From positions 4,092 to 68,091 of the forward strand of contig CACFIX010000004.1 in NCBI GenBank assembly GCA_902566515.1: a stretch of DNA of 64,000 nt, given 5' to 3'. A model generated the notes under the pieces. The model was not told the DNA's origin. It saw nothing but the letters and a program-made list of their open reading frames with translations, and did not search any database. This stretch comes from an uncultured Candidatus Actinomarina sp. Lineage in GTDB: Bacteria > Actinomycetota > Acidimicrobiia > Actinomarinales > Actinomarinaceae. Below, piece by piece: positions 2,497-55,158 of this stretch; position 1 is the stretch's first letter; each line of letters begins with the position of its first letter. Position numbers and translations under genes: made by a program.

Positions 2497-3257
2497 ATGA
2501 GAAATCTTTCCACAATAGTTGTAGCAATTGAAATAAATGATAAATAATAAAGAAGAGAAGACTTTTTAAATTCTCTTTTCTTAAGTTCAATTGAACCGTT
2601 GAAACCTCTGGATATCATTGAGTTATAAACTCTTTCACCTCTTTCATACCCTCTTATCAACATTGCACCAGAAGCATATGCAATTGGTTTTAATCCCCTT
2701 AATCCTTTTTGATCATAACCTCTTGATTTCATTGCAACTTTAACTCTTTTAAATTCATCAATAAAAACATCAATATATCTAATTGCAAAAGATAATATTG
2801 AAATTAACAACGGTGAAATTTTTAATTTTTGCAAACCATAAATAATCTCAATATTTGATGTAGTAGCAGTTAAAACAATTGCTAACGAAACACACAGTGT
2901 AATTTTAATTAATATTGAAATCATTTCATTGAAACCAGTTTCATAAATAGGCAATGAAAAAAATTCAAACATCACAGTACTATCTCCTTTACTTAAAAAA
3001 GGGAGAAATAAAGCAAACAATACAAAGGGTATGTCGATTGAAAGTCTTTTAAAATATGTAGATATTTTTATTTTAGATAAATACAACAACAATAATACAA
3101 CGAAAGTTTGTACAATTATTGCTAAATTTTTCTCAAGGCTTAAGAAAGCAATAGACAAGACAATTATAAATGTTGTTGCAATTTTGATTTCAGGTCTGGT
3201 GTTACTGAGAACAGAGTTTCTGTGAATTTCTAGATGATGCGAGTGTGTTGTTTCCAT
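2493..3257 (-). CDS. cbiQ: ECF-type Co/Ni transporter T component (CbiQ/NikQ)
   Basis: His-rich N-terminus, multiple TM segments, AMKSRG and ERGERVYNSMISRGF motifs. Confidence 0.88.
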   Translation of the reverse strand: METTHSHHLEIHRNSVLSNTRPEIKIATTFIIVLSIAFLSLEKNLAIIVQTFVVLLLLYLSKIKISTYFKRLSIDIPFVLFALFLPFLSKGDSTVMFEFFSLPIYETGFNEMISILIKITLCVSLAIVLTATTSNIEIIYGLQKLKISPLLISILSFAIRYIDVFIDEFKRVKVAMKSRGYDQKGLRGLKPIAYASGAMLIRGYERGERVYNSMISRGFNGSIELKKREFKKSSLLYYLSFISIATTIVERFLI

Positions 3258-41172: not shown

Positions 41173-43014
41173 TTAAATTTTTGACATTAAAAAGTGACTC
41201 ATAGACTGAATACTAATCATTGGATTCACACCTGAACAACGAGGGAAGGTAGAAGCATCGACAATATAGACATTGTCTAAACCATGTACTTTTCCATCTA
41301 AATCAACCACACCATGTTCGGGGTTAGGATTGATTCTCGCAGTACCCATTTGATGTGCTGACCCAAGAAGCATTCGATACGGTTCATTTTTTATTAATTC
41401 AACTTTGTTAATAAAGTCTTCGATACTTTCATTTGAAGACTTTTTCCAATGCATCGTAGGTGAACTTGCAACCATAATTTCTTCTGCTCCAGCTAAGTAA
41501 TTAGCCTTTACAAGACTCACTATCCCGTGAATTAAATTAGTGTGATCAAAGTCATTTAACTTATAATCCCATAAATGTTGAGGGTGTTTATTGATTATGT
41601 ATCCAGAACTTGTATCGGATGTCAAAACAATGCTTCCAGACCAATAATTATAACTTTTTATGAATTCACTAAAACTATCTAAATTATTTGGAAAAAACGG
41701 GAAGAAAAGGCTTGGATGCATTGGAAGACCTTCTAATAGGTAACCATAATTATCTTTTAGAAATAAATTATCATCCGAATAAATTCCCTGCATTGTACCT
41801 GCCCATGGTTTTTGTTCTTCTGAAAACTTACCTGCAACACCTGAAACAGGATGAAGTTTTAAATTACGACCAAGATGTCTATTTTTATATCCGCTATCGA
41901 GCAAAATTTTAGGAGTATTTAAGGAACCTGCTGCAAGAATTACCCTGTTAACAGCAATCTCATGTAATGTACCATTATTTTCAACATTAATATGGGTAGC
42001 TTTTCCATTTGATATATTGAGACTTCTAATATTTGTATCACCAAATACATTATTGGGTTCAAATCTTTCTTCTGAAAACCAAATTTTGTTGGAGGAGTTG
42101 ATGCTTTCGTCATAACGACCAAAAGTACTGAAACCTGATTCTGTGCAATCTGCGTTACTTGTATTCCTTGGGATAATTTTATAGTTTAAATTATTCAGCT
42201 CTAACCCCTCAGCCAATTTTTTTTCTTTTTGTGGTATTCGATTATTTTTTATATCAACATTTAATTCCTTGCACACATAATCCATACTGTTTTTAAATTC
42301 GCTGGAATTGAAATAATTAGTTTGTTTGGTTAGTGTATCCCATTCACTCAAAATTTTATCTGGAGTCCTGAGTGAAGTTGTCCAGTTCACACTTGTGCCA
42401 CCACCAATTCCCATTCCAGCTAAAAGTAAAACTTTATACCCTCTTGTTTGTTGAATTCCATAAGTATCGTAAAAGTTGTGATATCCGAATGTTTCATTGT
42501 TGGTCATACCATTTCCGGAACTTCCTTTTTCAAAAATACCTACTTCATATTTTTCATTGAGAACACTAGCTGCGATACCTCCACCGGAACCACTTCCAAT
42601 TACTGCTACTTCAATACTTTTAGGAATTGATATATTCTTCTTTTCAATTTTTGTATTTTTATATATTGGATAATCAAGATGTTTATATACAGATCCCTCT
42701 CCATCAAGAGATCTTGCAGTACTTAATCCAAATAATGCAGTAATACCAGAACCAAGTTTTCTCAATAACGATAAGTTGGAGCTTTGTAGATTTGTCACAA
42801 ATGTTGGAATACTTGAATCCTTTATAAAAATTTTTCTTGCTTTAAAAGAAAATATAAAAAAGACAACTTTAAGCAGTGCAATTTCTGATCTATCAGGAAA
42901 ATTCTCAAGAATAAAATTAAAATACTTTTCAGAGTTTTTTGTTTCTTCTTCGTTGAAATCTGGATACAAACTTGAAAAAATGACCCTAAATGTTTTTGAT
43001 ATTCTTTTATCCAT
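41173..43014 (-). CDS. GMC-family flavoprotein oxidoreductase, long-chain alcohol oxidase-like
   Basis: GSGSGGG, GGGTSVNW, LAAGSLNTP, NLKLHP, SAHQMGT, DASTFP..SGVNPM. Confidence 0.88.
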   Translation of the reverse strand: MDKRISKTFRVIFSSLYPDFNEEETKNSEKYFNFILENFPDRSEIALLKVVFFIFSFKARKIFIKDSSIPTFVTNLQSSNLSLLRKLGSGITALFGLSTARSLDGEGSVYKHLDYPIYKNTKIEKKNISIPKSIEVAVIGSGSGGGIAASVLNEKYEVGIFEKGSSGNGMTNNETFGYHNFYDTYGIQQTRGYKVLLLAGMGIGGGTSVNWTTSLRTPDKILSEWDTLTKQTNYFNSSEFKNSMDYVCKELNVDIKNNRIPQKEKKLAEGLELNNLNYKIIPRNTSNADCTESGFSTFGRYDESINSSNKIWFSEERFEPNNVFGDTNIRSLNISNGKATHINVENNGTLHEIAVNRVILAAGSLNTPKILLDSGYKNRHLGRNLKLHPVSGVAGKFSEEQKPWAGTMQGIYSDDNLFLKDNYGYLLEGLPMHPSLFFPFFPNNLDSFSEFIKSYNYWSGSIVLTSDTSSGYIINKHPQHLWDYKLNDFDHTNLIHGIVSLVKANYLAGAEEIMVASSPTMHWKKSSNESIEDFINKVELIKNEPYRMLLGSAHQMGTARINPNPEHGVVDLDGKVHGLDNVYIVDASTFPRCSGVNPMISIQSMSHFLMSKI

Positions 43015-49175: not shown

Positions 49176-49745
49176 ATGCAAATCATTTTAGCTAGTCAGA
49201 ATAAAAATAAGTTAAAGGAATTATCTACAATATTTCAAATAAATTCAAGTAAACATTCTTTGGTGTTTCCCAGTAGAGTTTTGAATGTAACTGAGGATAA
49301 AGAAACTATAAAAGAAAATGCTGAAAAGAAGGCCTTAGAGTATTTTGAGTTTTATGATTTACCAGTAATTGCAGATGACTCAGGTCTTTTTGTAGATGCA
49401 CTTAATGGTGCTCCCGGTGTTCATTCAGCTCGTTTTTCAGGAGAAAATGCAAATGATGAAAAAAATAATGATAAATTATTAGATTTGCTTCAAAATAATT
49501 CAAATAGATCAGCAACTTTCAAAACAGTTTTATGTTTTTATGATGGTAAAGAATTTATGAATACCTTAGGTGAACTAAATGGTGAAATTTTATCATCACC
49601 GAGAGGAGAAAATGGTTTTGGTTACGATCCTATATTTGAAGTAAATGGTAAAACTCTTGCTGAAATGACATTAGAAGAAAAATCGGAGATTAGTCATAGA
49701 AAAATTGCGACAATTAAGATGGTTGAGTTGTTAAATGAAATATAA
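49176..49745 (+). CDS. rdgB: RdgB/HAM1 dITP/XTP pyrophosphatase
   Basis: ASQNKNKLKE, ADDSGL.VDALNGAPGV.SAR, GFGYDPIF, SHR. Confidence 0.95.
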   Translation: MQIILASQNKNKLKELSTIFQINSSKHSLVFPSRVLNVTEDKETIKENAEKKALEYFEFYDLPVIADDSGLFVDALNGAPGVHSARFSGENANDEKNNDKLLDLLQNNSNRSATFKTVLCFYDGKEFMNTLGELNGEILSSPRGENGFGYDPIFEVNGKTLAEMTLEEKSEISHRKIATIKMVELLNEI

Positions 49746-50418
49746 AACATTATTAAAATTTCTATTTGTTTTTCTTGTATTTTCTGCATGTGAAGTTAAG
49801 TGGGACATGGAAATTTCTTTCGAAGAAGACTTATCGGGAAGTTACTCAATAGCAGTATTGATAGATCAAGAAGCACAAATGTATGCGGTTGAGACTGGGC
49901 AATCCTCAATTGGAGGCTTAGATGCAATACTGTCAAATCTTCCAGATGGTTTCGGTTCAAGTGTTTATCAAGAAGGAAACTATTTGGGAATTCTTATTAG
50001 AAACGATTTTGAAGATACAGATGAGTTGTTATTACAGTTTGAACAATTAAAGTCTGAGGAAAATACTGCTTTATTAATGTTACCAATTCAGGAAATTCGA
50101 TTTGATAAAAGTGAACGTGATTTTGGAATTACAGGCAAGTTTGCAGAAATTTTTGTAACAGATGAAGAAAACTTAGAGGGTTTTAAAAGAATATTCGACG
50201 GCCAACTATCAATTATTGTTCCAGGTAATATTACAGATCCTCAAATTAGCGAAATAGTAGATAATACAATTATTTTTGAAAACGATGGTCTTTCGGTAAA
50301 AACTTTTAAGTTGGTCACAAGAACTAAACCAATTTTTACGCCAGAGCTAATTGCTGCGCTATTAGCAATTTTTGGTCTAATAATTTATTTTGTTAGACAA
50401 TCTGTCAAAAAGAAGTAA
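49735..50418 (+). CDS. Hypothetical lipoprotein with C-terminal TM (LppM/DUF3153-like)
   Basis: Lipobox FSAC, VPGNIT motif, C-terminal hydrophobic anchor. Confidence 0.55.
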   Translation: MKYKTLLKFLFVFLVFSACEVKWDMEISFEEDLSGSYSIAVLIDQEAQMYAVETGQSSIGGLDAILSNLPDGFGSSVYQEGNYLGILIRNDFEDTDELLLQFEQLKSEENTALLMLPIQEIRFDKSERDFGITGKFAEIFVTDEENLEGFKRIFDGQLSIIVPGNITDPQISEIVDNTIIFENDGLSVKTFKLVTRTKPIFTPELIAALLAIFGLIIYFVRQSVKKK

Positions 50419-50428
50419 TATTGTCTCA

Positions 50429-50455
50429 ATGAAAAAAATTATAATTATTATTTAG
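50429..50455 (+). CDS. Ile-rich leader peptide MKKIIIII*
   Basis: ATG AAA AAA ATT ATA ATT ATT ATT TAG; TAATAT -10 element 7 nt upstream (50416..50421). Confidence 0.75.
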   Translation: MKKIIIII

Positions 50456-50480
50456 GAGCAGCGTTTACAACGTTGTTACC
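50455..50480 (+). promoter_or_regulatory. Putative antiterminator hairpin
   Basis: GGAGCAGCGTT (50455..50465) pairs with AACGTTGTT-a-CC (50469..50480), taking bases from the 5' arm of the terminator. Confidence 0.55.
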
Positions 50481-50504
50481 CTTGCATGGCAAGGGTTTTT
50501 TTTT
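50478..50504 (+). terminator. Attenuator terminator upstream of cimA
   Basis: ACCCTTGC-atg-GCAAGGGT with a 9-T run (50496..50504), ending 5 nt before the cimA ATG. Confidence 0.85.
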
Positions 50505-50509
50505 AGACT

Positions 50510-52066
50510 ATGAAAATTGATATATTTGATACAACTTTAAGAGACGGCTTTCAACAAGAAGGAATTTCACCTTCTGTAAAAGATAAACTCGAAATTGCAA
50601 AATTATTAGATAATCTTGGAGTATCTTTTATTGAAGGTGGTTGGCCTGGTGCTTCTCCTAAAGAAGAAGAGTTTTTCAAAAAAGCAAAATCAGAACTTAA
50701 TCTTGCTAATTCAAAACTTGTTAGCTTTGGATCAACAAGAAAACTTAATTTGAGCGCTGACAAAGACCCTCAAGTACAAGCATTGCTTGATGCAGATACA
50801 GAATATGTATGCATAGTGGGAAAGTCTTCAAAACTACATATTACAAAAGCTATACAAGCCACTGTCGATGAAGCAATAGAAATGGCAGTTGATACCATTA
50901 ATTATTTAGTACAAAATAAAAAGAAAGTATTTTTTGATGCAGAACATTTTTTTGACGGTTACAAAGAAGAACCAGAAACAAGTTTAAAAATATTAGATGC
51001 TGTAATTTCTACAAAAGTAGAATGTTTTGTATTTTGTGACACAAACGGTGGAACTCTTCCAAGTGAAGTCCATGAGATAATTTCAGAAATAATTTCAAAA
51101 TATCCAAAAGCAAACTTTGGCGTACACTTCCAAAACGACAATGGTTGTGCAGTAGCTAATTCAATGGTTGCAGTTGATTTAGGTGTAAATCATGTTCAAG
51201 GAACCATTAATGGGTATGGTGAAAGAACAGGAAATGCTGATTTATGTACTTTAATCCCCAATTTAACATTAAAGAAAGGCTATAAAACAATTCCTGAACA
51301 CTCACTAGGCCAATTAACTCAAACAGCAAATCATATTGCTGAGTTAGTAAATGTAGTGATTGATTCACGTCATCCTTATGTAGGTTCCTCAGCTTTTACA
51401 CATAAAGCTGGATTACATGCATCTGGAATGGCAAAGGATAGCTCACTTTATGAACACATTGATTCAGCCGCGGTTGGGAATTTTACAAGGACAACAGTAT
51501 CTGAATTAGCTGGTAGAGCTAGTGTTCTAACAAAAGCAGAGGAATTTGGTTTGGAATTTAACAATGATGATGCCAAAAAATTAATTGAAGAAGTGCAGAA
51601 TCTTGAACATATGGGATATCAATTTGAAGCAGCTGATGGATCGCTATTTATATTGATGAACAAACTCAAGAATATTGAACCCAACTTTTTCAAATTTGAA
51701 AGCTTTAGGGTATTTTCTGAAAGACGAAATTCTGAAAATGTTGTTTCAGAAGCAGTTTGTAAAATTATTGTAGATGAAAATAGATACGTTAAAACTGGAG
51801 AAGGAGTCGGCCCAGTTGATGCTTTGAGCAAAGCTTTGAAATCTGCTTTAGAAAATGATTATTCAAAAGTAAATGAAATCAAGCTTATTGATTACAAAGT
51901 TAGAATTATAGATTCTTCAGATGGAACTGAAGCAAAAACACGGGTCTTGATTGAATTTACAGATTCCAATAAGAAATGGAGTACTATCGGAGTTCATGAA
52001 AATATAATCAATGCTTCATGGAATGCTTTGTGTGATGGTTTTAATTATTATTTTATGACTTCTTAA
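50510..52066 (+). CDS. cimA: (R)-citramalate synthase (LeuA family)
   Basis: DTTLRDG, IEGGWPG.SPK, FFDAEHFFDG, CDTNGG, VQGTINGYGERTGNA, HKAGLHAS, GVGPVDAL, WSTIGVHENII.ASW. Confidence 0.85.
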   Translation: MKIDIFDTTLRDGFQQEGISPSVKDKLEIAKLLDNLGVSFIEGGWPGASPKEEEFFKKAKSELNLANSKLVSFGSTRKLNLSADKDPQVQALLDADTEYVCIVGKSSKLHITKAIQATVDEAIEMAVDTINYLVQNKKKVFFDAEHFFDGYKEEPETSLKILDAVISTKVECFVFCDTNGGTLPSEVHEIISEIISKYPKANFGVHFQNDNGCAVANSMVAVDLGVNHVQGTINGYGERTGNADLCTLIPNLTLKKGYKTIPEHSLGQLTQTANHIAELVNVVIDSRHPYVGSSAFTHKAGLHASGMAKDSSLYEHIDSAAVGNFTRTTVSELAGRASVLTKAEEFGLEFNNDDAKKLIEEVQNLEHMGYQFEAADGSLFILMNKLKNIEPNFFKFESFRVFSERRNSENVVSEAVCKIIVDENRYVKTGEGVGPVDALSKALKSALENDYSKVNEIKLIDYKVRIIDSSDGTEAKTRVLIEFTDSNKKWSTIGVHENIINASWNALCDGFNYYFMTS

Positions 52067-52115: not shown

Positions 52116-54062
52116 ATGAATGAAAAAATCGAAAATTTACTTAAAGAAGAACGAAAATTCCCTCCTTCGAAAGAACTTACAGAAAATGCAAACGCAACAT
52201 CTTCATGGTATGAAGATGCAGATAAAAATCGCTTAGAATTTTGGCAGAAGCAAGCTTTAACAAGAATCTCTTGGTATAAAGAACCAACAGAAGTTTTAGA
52301 TGATTCAAACCCTCCTTTTTTTAAATGGTTTAAAGATGGAGAGCTTAATTTATCTTATAACTGTTTAGACCGTCATCTAGAAACTGATTCAGATAGAGTA
52401 GCTTTTTATTGGGAAGGTGAACCTGGAGATACGCAAGAAATAACTTATCAAGATCTTTATGAAAGAGTCTGTAAGTTATCTAATGCATTAAAACAACTTG
52501 GAGTTCAAAAAGGTGATAGGGTAGCAATTTATTTAGGCATGACTCCAGAGATTGTTGTTTCAATGTTAGCATGTGCAAGAATTGGTGCAGTTCATTCAGT
52601 TGTCTTTGGAGGTTTTTCTTCGGAAGCACTTGCTGACAGAATTAATGATGCAAAGGCAAAGACTGTTATTACAGCTGATGGAGCATGGAGAAGAGGGGAT
52701 ATAGTTCCACTTAAAAACAATGTCGATGGTTCACTTGATTTAACAGACTATGTTGAAAATGTAATAGTTGTAAGACGAACAGAACAAGAAATAAATATGG
52801 ATGATGGTAGAGATCACTGGTATCACGAAATAACAGAAAAACAATCTTCTGAATGTGAGCCTGAAGTAATGAATGCTGAAGATTTGTTATACATTTTATA
52901 TACATCAGGAACAACAGCTAAACCTAAAGGTATCGTCCATACACAGGCTGGTTACCTCACTGGAGTTACAACTACTCATCATGAGGTATTTGATGTTAAA
53001 GAGGATGATATTTATTGGTGTGCTGCAGATTGTGGTTGGGTAACAGGTCATAGTTATATTGTTTATGGACCTTTAGCAAATAAAGCAACAAGTGTAATGT
53101 ACGAAGGTGCACCAAATGCCCCCGATGAAAAAAGATTATGGAGCATAATTGAAAAATATAAAGTTAATATTTTTTATACTGCACCAACGGCAATTAGAGC
53201 ATTTATGAAATGGGGAGTTGAGCATCCGCAAGCTCACGATTTAAGTTCGTTGAGAATACTTGGCACTGTTGGGGAGCCAATTAATCCTGAAGCCTGGATG
53301 TGGTACCACAAAAATATTGGTGGAGAAAATTGTGCAATTGTTGATACTTGGTGGCAGACAGAAACAGGTTCAATTATGATTTCACCTTTGCCAGGCGTAA
53401 CAAGCACTAAACCAGGATCTGCCTGTGGTCCTTTACCTGGTATCGAATCTGTAATTATTGACAATGATGGAAATGAAGTGGGCAAAGGAGAAGGTGGATT
53501 TTTAGCAATCAAATCTCCGTGGCCATCAATGCTTCGAACAGTATATGGAGATGACGCAAGGTATATTGATACATATTGGTCTCAACATAAAGGTTTATAT
53601 TTTGCCGGCGATGGTGCAAAATATGATGAAGAGGGTTACATTTGGCTTTTAGGTCGTGTTGATGACGTAATGAATATATCTGGACATAGAATATCTACTG
53701 CGGAAGTTGAAAGTGCGTTAGTTTCACATAATGCTGTTGCTGAGGCAGCAGTTATCGGTCGAAGTGATGAAATAACCGGAGAAGCAATTGCTGCCTTTGT
53801 ATCTTTAATTGGGACTGAGGAAGGCAATGAAGATTTGATTGCGGAACTTAGACAGCATGTAAGTGACAAAATTGGTCCGATTGCAAAACCTAAAAGCATA
53901 GTAATTACTGCTGATCTTCCAAAAACGAGAAGTGGAAAAATTATGAGAAGATTACTTAAAGATATTTCAGAAGAAAGAAAATTAGGTGATGTAACAACAT
54001 TAGCAAATGCTGATATTGTTTCAGAGCTTCAAACTAGAGCTTCAGATTCTGACGATGAATGA
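52116..54062 (+). CDS. acs: Acetyl-CoA synthetase
   Basis: YTSGTTAKPKG, GTVGEPINPEAW, DTWWQTETG, GRVDDV, LPKTRSGKIMRR. Confidence 0.96.
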   Translation: MNEKIENLLKEERKFPPSKELTENANATSSWYEDADKNRLEFWQKQALTRISWYKEPTEVLDDSNPPFFKWFKDGELNLSYNCLDRHLETDSDRVAFYWEGEPGDTQEITYQDLYERVCKLSNALKQLGVQKGDRVAIYLGMTPEIVVSMLACARIGAVHSVVFGGFSSEALADRINDAKAKTVITADGAWRRGDIVPLKNNVDGSLDLTDYVENVIVVRRTEQEINMDDGRDHWYHEITEKQSSECEPEVMNAEDLLYILYTSGTTAKPKGIVHTQAGYLTGVTTTHHEVFDVKEDDIYWCAADCGWVTGHSYIVYGPLANKATSVMYEGAPNAPDEKRLWSIIEKYKVNIFYTAPTAIRAFMKWGVEHPQAHDLSSLRILGTVGEPINPEAWMWYHKNIGGENCAIVDTWWQTETGSIMISPLPGVTSTKPGSACGPLPGIESVIIDNDGNEVGKGEGGFLAIKSPWPSMLRTVYGDDARYIDTYWSQHKGLYFAGDGAKYDEEGYIWLLGRVDDVMNISGHRISTAEVESALVSHNAVAEAAVIGRSDEITGEAIAAFVSLIGTEEGNEDLIAELRQHVSDKIGPIAKPKSIVITADLPKTRSGKIMRRLLKDISEERKLGDVTTLANADIVSELQTRASDSDDE

Positions 54063-54549: not shown

Positions 54550-54563
54550 TAATCAAAACATAG

Positions 54564-54646
54564 TGCGGATGAGAGGAGTCGAACCTCCACGAGCAAAGCT
54601 CACTGGATCCTAAATCCAGCGCGTCTACCAGTTCCGCCACATCCGC
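54564..54646 (-). tRNA. tRNA-Leu (TAG)
   Basis: GCGGATG acceptor, CTGGA-TTTAGGA-TCCAG anticodon arm, long variable arm. Confidence 0.95.
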
Positions 54647-54657
54647 TAAATGTAACG

Positions 54658-54731
54658 TGGGTCGCCGGGGACTTGAACCCCGAACCTGCGGATTAAGAGT
54701 CCGATGCTCTGCCAAATTGAGCTAGCGACCC
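54658..54731 (-). tRNA. tRNA-Lys (CTT)
   Basis: GGGTCGC acceptor, anticodon loop CTCTTAA, TTCAAGT T-loop. Confidence 0.93.
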
Positions 54732-54825
54732 CTTTTAAAGAATAACTTAGATTATGATAGATAAGTATATATTTTTTCTATTTATTGTTTAATTAAATCA
54801 GTTAACATAGAAAATAATTAAGTTG

Positions 54826-54900
54826 CGGGCTGTGGCTCAGTTTGGCTAGAGCGCTTGGTTTGGGACCAAGAGGTCGTGAGTTCGAATCTCACCAGCCCGA
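54826..54900 (+). tRNA. tRNA-Pro (TGG)
   Basis: CGGGCTG/CAGCCCG acceptor, CTTGG-TTTGGGA-CCAAG. Confidence 0.95.
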
Positions 54901-54907
54901 CATCCTA

Positions 54908-54978
54908 GCGGGTGTAGCTTAATGGCAAAGCTCCAGCCTTCCAAGCTGGCTATGAGGGTTCGATTCCCTTCACCCGCT
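54908..54978 (+). tRNA. tRNA-Gly (TCC)
   Basis: GCGGGTG acceptor, CCAGC-CTTCCAA-GCTGG, U discriminator. Confidence 0.95.
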
Positions 54979-54986
54979 CTGGCAGA

Positions 54987-55060
54987 GCTCTCGTAGCTCA
55001 AATGGATAGAGCAACAGACTTCTAATCTGTAGGTTGTAGGTTCGAGTCCTACCGAGAGCG
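54987..55060 (+). tRNA. tRNA-Arg (TCT)
   Basis: GCTCTCG/CGAGAGC acceptor, ACAGA-CTTCTAA-TCTGT. Confidence 0.95.
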
Positions 55061-55064
55061 CCGT

Positions 55065-55139
55065 GGTGATCGTAGCTCAGTTGGTTAGAGCGCCTGGTTG
55101 TGGTCCAGGAGGTCGCGGGTTCGAATCCCGTCGGTCACC
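55065..55139 (+). tRNA. tRNA-His (GTG)
   Basis: Encoded G-1 opposite C73, CCTGG-TTGTGGT-CCAGG. Confidence 0.95.
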
Positions 55140-55158
55140 CTCAATTTATAGGAGATAA

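Follow-up and report, generated by a model that had tools for sequence, protein, structure and literature searches.

The amino acid leaders of enterobacteria (trpL, hisL, leuL, thrL, ilvL/ivbL) have three features in common: a short open reading frame (ORF) in which codons for the amino acid made by the pathway occur in a row, an intrinsic terminator ahead of the first structural gene, and a hairpin after the stop codon that is occluded by the terminating ribosome. Features of the same three kinds are present or predicted upstream of cimA, the gene for citramalate synthase, in Candidatus Actinomarina (OCS155, Acidimicrobiia). Here an eight-codon ORF with five consecutive isoleucine codons is followed by a hairpin (H1) and by an intrinsic terminator (T) that ends just before cimA. 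The locus lies in a 64,000-nucleotide (nt) stretch of DNA (the window; contig C4, positions 4092-68091) from a genome of 837 kb in 35 contigs with 32% G+C. Coordinates given below without a contig are those of the window, and the leader and cimA are read from its plus strand. Judged from sequence comparison and predicted folds, the element is probably a transcription attenuator of the leaderless, ribosome-mediated kind, by which cimA follows the supply of charged tRNA-Ile, and cimA would very probably be switched on when isoleucine is short.

Among the described systems, the nearest relatives in kind are the actinobacterial ilvB leaders. Leaderless ilvB leaders, or ones rich in branched-chain amino acid codons, with terminators have been described in Corynebacterium and Mycobacterium (PMC1262725, PMC11857589, PMC13236596). 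In C. glutamicum, ilvBNC has a leaderless leader peptide and a three-hairpin model in which antiterminator and terminator share a boundary GCC trinucleotide (PMC11857589). In M. tuberculosis, the leader of ilvB1NC is ~166 nt long and contains an upstream ORF with LVVI regulatory codons, a Rho-independent terminator and a predicted, mutually exclusive antiterminator (PMC13236596). A survey of actinobacterial amino acid leaders (Seliverstov et al. 2005) does not have cimA among them, and a literature search found no paper in which a leader peptide or attenuator is linked to cimA or its product.

The cimA leader resembles that of C. glutamicum ilvBNC in being actinobacterial, in its predicted translation start at or next to the 5' end, and in having near-adjacent hairpins that compete for 2-3 boundary nt only, a trait also of the ilvB leader in the same Actinomarina genome. 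It differs in its shared pairs, which include a bulge, are less stable than those of T itself and vary within the class; there is also no anti-antiterminator, the codons are for isoleucine only, and the target is cimA and not ilvB. With M. tuberculosis ilvB1NC it shares a branched-chain-rich ORF, a terminator with a U-tract in the leader and a logic based on ribosome position, but there several amino acids are sensed and the common pathway is controlled. The mixed Leu/Val/Ile codons that precede ilvB are absent from the cimA leader. From the enterobacterial attenuators it differs in its predicted leaderless ORF without a Shine-Dalgarno sequence, in its target, in matching no Rfam leader family, and in having just two hairpins that abut, with no antiterminator sharing a strand with the terminator. 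The cimA leader is set apart from all of these by its target gene, its single amino acid, its small size and its non-overlapping hairpins.

The cimA leader and its conservation

Within 50394-50509 the parts follow each other in the order promoter, mini-ORF, H1, T with nine U, and then cimA. A consensus scan identified a -35-like hexamer, TAGACA (50394-50399); 41 of the 42 distinct Actinomarina leaders have it unchanged, whether it falls inside or outside the upstream coding sequence. A spacer of 16 nt separates it from the -10 hexamer TAATAT (50416-50421), which was found by the same scan and overlaps the TAA stop codon of the upstream ORF (49735-50418). As noted in the preliminary description of the locus, TAATAT lies 7 nt ahead of an ATG (50429) that opens an eight-codon ORF with five isoleucine codons. 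This spacing implies a leaderless transcript, with a predicted start at the ATG or 1 nt before it. The ORF (50429-50455; ATG AAA AAA ATT ATA ATT ATT ATT TAG) encodes MKKIIIII, and its five consecutive isoleucine codons, ATT ATA ATT ATT ATT (50438-50452), are the presumed regulatory codons. The single ATA had been called rare, but ATA makes up 34% of the isoleucine codons of this genome; the rarest is ATC, at 10%.

H1 (50457-50477) is a predicted hairpin of 9 base pairs (bp), three of them G-U, with the loop UAC and a stability of ~-7.5 kcal/mol; 50457-50465 pairs with 50469-50477. The hairpin reported earlier at the stop codon is present, but its first pair is 2 nt past that codon, and the G of the stop is reached only by a 2-bp extension of H1 to 50455-50480 (G50455-C50480 and G50456-C50479, with A50478 bulged). 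T (50478-50496) abuts H1 directly and is predicted to form 8 bp (five G-C) with the loop AUG and -11.4 kcal/mol, 50478-50485 pairing with 50489-50496. Its tract of nine U (50496-50504, the first U pairing with A50478) fits the strong terminator with a 9-U tail that had been placed just before cimA. The cimA gene (50510-52066, 518 aa, TIGR00977 match) starts with the ATG at 50510, after a gap of 5 nt. The fold of the ~100-nt stretch has a z-score of -3.2, with 0 of 200 shuffles equally stable. An Rfam cmscan of 49900-50900 (E up to 10) gave hits no better than chance and no leader or T-box family, the best score being 19.6 bits against a gathering score of 70. The upstream ORF (49735-50418, plus strand, 227 aa) has a hydrophobic stretch, then ...YFVRQSVKKK at its C-terminal end, and no NCBIfam match; its conserved VRQ codons contain the -35 of the leader, and its stop codon shares nucleotides with the -10.

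The comparative evidence bears out the design: frame, isoleucine run, hairpin and terminator are kept in 42 of 42 Actinomarina leaders and at 54 of 87 cimA loci from other Acidimicrobiia. The Actinomarina leaders come from loci whose CimA is 76-99% identical to that of the window, and the element was present in all 29 same-genus loci of the genome search and in further Actinomarina records. In this genus the ORF has 7-9 codons with conserved frame and stop position and an isoleucine run of 2-5 codons, and in the aligned leaders 6-7 nt separate the -10 from the ATG. The peptides are MKKIIIII, MQKIIIIV, MKKIIIIV, MINIKIIF, MMNIIIIN, MINIIIIN, MMNIIIII, MNIIIII, MINFIIII, MINFMIII, MINFIIIT and MKIIGIIIM. 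In an alignment of 33 Actinomarina leader rows (A1), 94.7% of the cells of H1 and T are paired (91% in the H1 helix, 98.5% in T), versus 35-54% in controls with shifted 3' partners. Pair 37:44 of H1 is compensatory (AU 16, UA 10, UG 4); all other pairs vary only via G-U or stay invariant. The T run (columns 72-79; positions 68-76 of the window row) is also invariant, and only L088 alters the preceding G.

The decisive support for H1 as a structure comes from comparison with leaders outside the genus. The 87 loci sampled there have a CimA 48-56% identical to that of the window, and GC-rich sequences are frequent among those shown. Of the 54 leaders with an isoleucine-run ORF, 53 were scorable, and all of these have two hairpins followed by a U-rich tail, although the hairpin sequences are unrelated to those of Actinomarina. 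The isoleucine runs are mostly written with ATC (for example MFDTTPTIIIN, MSASIIIIA and MTETATTIIIM), so that what is conserved is the meaning of the codons and not the nucleotides. When the 41 Actinomarina and 53 other leaders are pooled (94 leaders), the median stability of the first hairpin is -14.6 kcal/mol, and the run of 2-5 isoleucine codons ends 0-2 codons before the stop. At many of the remaining loci there is no gap between cimA and the 3' end of the gene before it, and any leader would thus have to sit further upstream. This gene is provisionally taken to be ilvE, a reading unconfirmed by profile.

The promoters of the other Acidimicrobiia consist of TTGAC, 17-18 nt and CATACT, ending 8-9 nt before the start codon. 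A -10-like hexamer of the CATACT type lies 5-9 nt upstream of the candidate start in 34 of the 54 leaders, compared with 2-10 of 54 at shifted control positions. Leaderless or near-leaderless expression thus looks general across the class. Threonine accounts for 22% (66/300) of the residues in the six positions before the isoleucine run (L131-L210, L030-L044; for example MIKTATTIIIT and MNTITTTVIIII) and is absent from the Actinomarina leaders. The mix of threonine and isoleucine codons in the other Acidimicrobiia resembles that of thrL-type leaders.

Could the arrangement be a coincidence, T being the terminator of the upstream gene (49735-50418) and the mini-ORF a chance product of an AT-rich spacer? 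Strings of ATT and ATA are common at such a base composition, and T would also block read-through from the upstream gene. However, a census of all ATG ORFs of 6-13 codons in the genome (n=8,241) contained only three with at least four consecutive isoleucine codons, and MKKIIIII is the only isoleucine-run ORF that ends within 45 nt of any of the 25 strong terminator-like sites found in the genome under a strict rule. Promoter, ORF, H1 and T are kept as one unit even where the upstream gene is a different one (L021-L029 group), and in the GC-rich relatives too. Furthermore, the 5-14 nt between T and cimA hold no promoter, so that cimA can only be transcribed through T. The comparative data already contradict a chance origin, which is extremely improbable.

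A few other candidates were set aside in the course of these controls. The other two mini-ORFs with four isoleucine codons in a row (contigs C3 and C7) were judged chance occurrences, one lying within thrS and the other having no terminator. The small ORF MFVNII, ahead of a terminator upstream of rimP on contig C5, was judged to precede an ordinary terminator of the preceding gene. A cimA promoter downstream of T was rejected; in the window only 5 nt are free and there is no -10 at a usable distance.

Ribosome position, H1 and the terminator

The leader has a run of cognate codons and a terminator, its stop codon lies against the hairpin that follows, and its target gene belongs to the matching pathway. 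What it lacks is an antiterminator that is mutually exclusive with the terminator through a shared strand; the trp leader of the same genome has one. Attenuation would proceed as follows. Transcription would start at the ATG (50429) or 1 nt before it, as the spacing from the -10 suggests, and a 70S ribosome would translate MKKIIIII while RNA polymerase makes H1 and T. When Ile-tRNA is plentiful, the ribosome would reach the TAG and unwind the 5' arm of H1; T would then fold, transcription would stop at the nine U, and cimA would be off. When Ile-tRNA is scarce, the ribosome would wait on an isoleucine codon with H1 folded at the mRNA entrance, termination at T would be reduced, and cimA would be made. 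We infer the translation of the ORF, its response to isoleucine and, above all, the way in which a folded H1 opposes T.

The leaders were folded under a ribosome model in which the RNA is kept unpaired to ~8-13 nt beyond the start of the A-site codon, limits that are taken from general knowledge. With Ile1-Ile4 in the A site H1 remains whole; with Ile5 there it is weakened, and with the stop codon there it disappears. All seven GC-rich relatives tested showed the same dependence on ribosome position. These folds favor the earlier proposal in that the ribosome, on reaching the stop codon, has to open the hairpin. The predicted folding of T, on the other hand, is independent of ribosome position. 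The minimum-energy fold contains H1 as well as T, abutting and without competition.

Several observations weigh against attenuation as outlined above. At equilibrium T forms at every ribosome position, with pair probabilities of 0.78-1.0 in the window, and in 88 of the 94 leaders it does not change between the stalled state and the stop state. With the ribosome on the last isoleucine codon and the 3' arm of T not yet made, a median of 3.5% of the nucleotides in the 5' arm of T are paired (94 leaders). The folds therefore provide no physical link from "H1 folded" to "T fails", since T forms regardless of where the ribosome stands and its 5' arm is free. The signals for translation in this genome are themselves poorly understood: the window cimA has no Shine-Dalgarno sequence, and a loose Shine-Dalgarno-like motif was found upstream of only 105 of 357 long ORFs in the whole genome. 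In Streptomyces coelicolor, mutation of the candidate regulatory codons of the ilvB leader is reported to have left regulation unchanged (PMC1262725); a conserved leader ORF is not proof of attenuation.

According to the preliminary description, the hairpin pairs into the first nucleotides of T and thereby acts as an antiterminator. In such a classical scheme the extended H1, with G50455-C50480 and G50456-C50479, would leave a truncated 5-bp T that is set apart from the U-tract and unable to terminate. The two bulged pairs do form in predicted folds as long as the 3' arm of T has not been made: for RNA that stops at the T loop, and a ribosome on Ile1-Ile4, the extension has a probability of 0.6-0.94. 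Moreover, T is worth only -3.1 kcal/mol without its three bottom pairs. But once the 3' arm has been made, H1 with full T (-20.1 kcal/mol) is better by 4.7 kcal/mol than extended H1 with truncated T (-15.4 kcal/mol), and the displacement of 2 bp should be fast. The extension also requires a bulge, and its G-G dinucleotide lies inside the ribosome when the last isoleucine codon is occupied.

The extension pairs are G-C in 27 of 33 leaders at A1 columns 29:54 and in only 17 of 33 at 28:55, and the extension is absent in 8 of the 41 Actinomarina leaders, including MINFIIII with UAAGAAC. With the ribosome on the first isoleucine codon, at least two nucleotides of the 5' arm of T are paired with upstream sequence in 33 of 41 Actinomarina leaders, and five are paired (UAAGG with CCUUG) in the MMNIIIIN group and L078; the same is true of only 6 of 53 leaders from the other Acidimicrobiia. 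No nucleotide is shared with T in 41 of these 53, and the layout is nonetheless kept. The test is capable of detecting competition, since it finds sequestration of the terminator arm in the trp leader (4 of 8 nt) and in the ilvB leader (2 of 7 nt) of the same genome. The hairpin of that ilvB leader shares two boundary nucleotides (GC) with its terminator, and this state is favored by 1.2 kcal/mol when the ribosome is stalled, and C. glutamicum ilvBNC works through a boundary of 3 nt (PMC11857589); both lend the classical scheme some credit. On balance it is unlikely that the extended H1 is a true antiterminator. By these predictions the cimA leader family is one without a classical antiterminator, and in Actinomarina there is at most a weak "boundary nucleotide" competition for 2-5 nt of the base of T. 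The earlier interpretation is thus partly supported: right in kind, with a proposed antiterminator that is weak and not general.

Four other pairings, examined by hand and with constrained or partial folds, were rejected, as none of them is stable or conserved. The 5' arm of H1 with the 5' arm of T (GCAA/UUGC) gives only 4 bp, as does the 3' arm of H1 with the 3' arm of T. The A-run of the lysine codons pairs with the U-tract in the minimum-energy fold of the window, but the A-run is not conserved. The fourth is that of the isoleucine codons with the cimA start.

Adjacency is common to the leaders: the stop codon, H1, 0-8 nt and T. Across the 94 leaders there are always exactly two hairpins with a spacer of this length. 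Measured from the end of the stop codon, the start of H1 is at -3 to +2 nt. The distances compensate each other; Actinomarina leaders typically have no codon between the last isoleucine and the stop and start H1 at +1 nt, and most other lineages have one codon and start at -1 nt. Counted from the start of the P-site codon, and with the last isoleucine codon in the A site, H1 consequently has its first paired nucleotide at +9 to +15, and at +10 to +13 in 82 of 94 leaders. In ribosome footprints and toeprints the region from +9 to +15 is where the mRNA enters the ribosome. As adjacency is the common factor and no strand is shared, steric or kinetic hindrance of T by the stalled ribosome together with the folded H1 is favored over competition between RNA strands.

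The geometry lends itself to a mechanism without any antiterminator RNA, in which the stalled ribosome itself prevents termination and the folded H1 collapses the tether between ribosome and polymerase. In the stalled state only 9-19 unfolded nt (median 13) would separate the base of T from the first nucleotide of the P-site codon, whereas with the stop codon in the A site the base of T is at +28 to +46 (median +33). A completed terminator hairpin reaches to ~9-10 nt from the RNA 3' end. Calculated with this distance, completion of T in the stalled state would put the P site ~18-29 nt from the active site of the polymerase. In the collided expressome the P site is 34 nt from the polymerase active site and the exit channel is aligned with the ribosome entrance (10.1101/2020.03.01.971028). 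The approach would be closer than this, so that T could not be completed while the ribosome is stalled. When isoleucine is replete and the A site holds the stop codon, H1 would be unwound, T would fold and transcription would stop. This steric mechanism is put forward tentatively, as a possible account of how H1 could act on T.

A precedent for control without antiterminator RNA exists in E. coli pyrBI and pyrE, where the terminator is obstructed by the ribosome and its formation is set by the closeness of the leading ribosome to RNA polymerase. In those operons the terminator lies within the leader ORF, and what is sensed is the UTP-dependent pausing of the polymerase. The cimA leader is alike in having no antiterminator RNA. 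It differs in that 22 nt lie between the end of its ORF and T; the signal would come from a ribosome stalled upstream, and H1 would shorten the tether.

The absence of base-pairing competition with T is equally what would be expected if H1 were a mere pause or synchronization hairpin, like 1:2 of the trp leader, or a barrier to the ribosome, with T a constitutive partial attenuator on which isoleucine has no effect. From general knowledge of his-type pauses, the location of H1 0-8 nt upstream of T would put a pause inside the 5' arm or the loop of T. That codon mutations in an actinobacterial leader ORF can be without effect (PMC1262725) points the same way. A pause hairpin, however, leaves unexplained why 94 leaders of a gene in the isoleucine pathway keep a run of isoleucine codons at 0-2 codons from the stop, with different codon use at 32% and at ~70% G+C, and why the hairpin is flush with the stop codon. 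Control might also lie elsewhere, in the stability of a leaderless mRNA or in the translation of cimA, but against this the cimA start is 5-14 nt beyond the U-tract and is unpaired in every predicted fold. Readings of this type are improbable, and less probable than an antiterminator formed by the extended H1.

The isoleucine pathway and other leaders of the genome

The assignment of the target gene as CimA rather than LeuA, made in the preliminary description, was upheld. The window protein scores 612.9 bits with TIGR00977 (cut-off 450), all leuA models stay below their own cut-offs, and a separate leuA is present immediately 3' of ilvC (C1:48395-49867; 616 bits, cut-off 598.7). No homologue of threonine dehydratase (TIGR01127, E <= 0.001) was found in 37 Actinomarina genomes (G000-G036), while the same search was positive in 14 of 14 control reference genomes. 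CimA is therefore probably the only source of 2-oxobutanoate in Actinomarina. The MINF- and MMN-type lineages of the genus have GGAAGA-rich spacers before cimA, unlike the window.

Downstream of cimA, after 49 nt, lies acs (52116-54062, plus strand), encoding an acetate-CoA ligase that is well above the cut-offs of both TIGR02188 and PRK00174. The cimA-acs gap contains no terminator-like site on the plus strand, and acs may be co-transcribed with cimA, which would supply CimA with acetyl-CoA. Six tRNA genes are clustered at 54563-55140 (Leu-tag, Lys-ctt, Pro-tgg, Gly-tcc, Arg-tct and His-gtg); there is no tRNA-Ile gene in the window.

Two further leader peptides indicate that this genome uses leader-peptide attenuation as a system. 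The leader MKNLSVFISVLVLLLI, leaderless and with Leu/Val/Ile codons, precedes the ilvB-ilvN-ilvC-leuA cluster. It lies on the minus strand of contig C1 (ATG at ~53209 in plus coordinates) and consists of TATAGT, 7 nt, the ORF with its stop codon, a hairpin that starts from the stop codon and an abutting terminator with nine U. The tryptophan leader MKNVTSWNWWSTT lies on the plus strand of contig C2 at ~2949-3040, upstream of a trpB2-like (tryptophan synthase beta) gene. It has a classical antiterminator, GUGCCC with GGGCAC (-10.2 kcal/mol), that overlaps the terminator. On the minus strand of contig C7 (~42000-42125 in reverse-strand coordinates) a segment of ~70 nt is led by TATAAT, contains no ORF and has a terminator with nine U at its end. 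The gene directly after it is provisionally taken to be infC, and the segment may be another leader, responding for example to a ribosomal protein or to IF3.

If the cimA leader works as proposed, leader-peptide attenuation extends to the citramalate route to isoleucine, with an isoleucine-only sensor placed on the isoleucine-specific branch. There would then be a division of labor in a genome of less than 1 Mb: an isoleucine-only leader on cimA, a Leu/Val/Ile leader on ilvBNC-leuA and a tryptophan leader on the trpB2-like gene. The layout of stop codon, hairpin, 0-8 nt and terminator without a shared strand raises the question of how the position of a ribosome could be passed on to a terminator without competition between RNA strands. 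At 76 nt, the cimA element would be a very compact model for the coupling of a ribosome on a leaderless transcript with RNA polymerase. Very little is known of regulation in abundant uncultured bacteria of the ocean. Three cis-acting switches, each of 75-90 nt and independent of any regulatory protein, would fit genome streamlining and could be read directly in metatranscriptomes.

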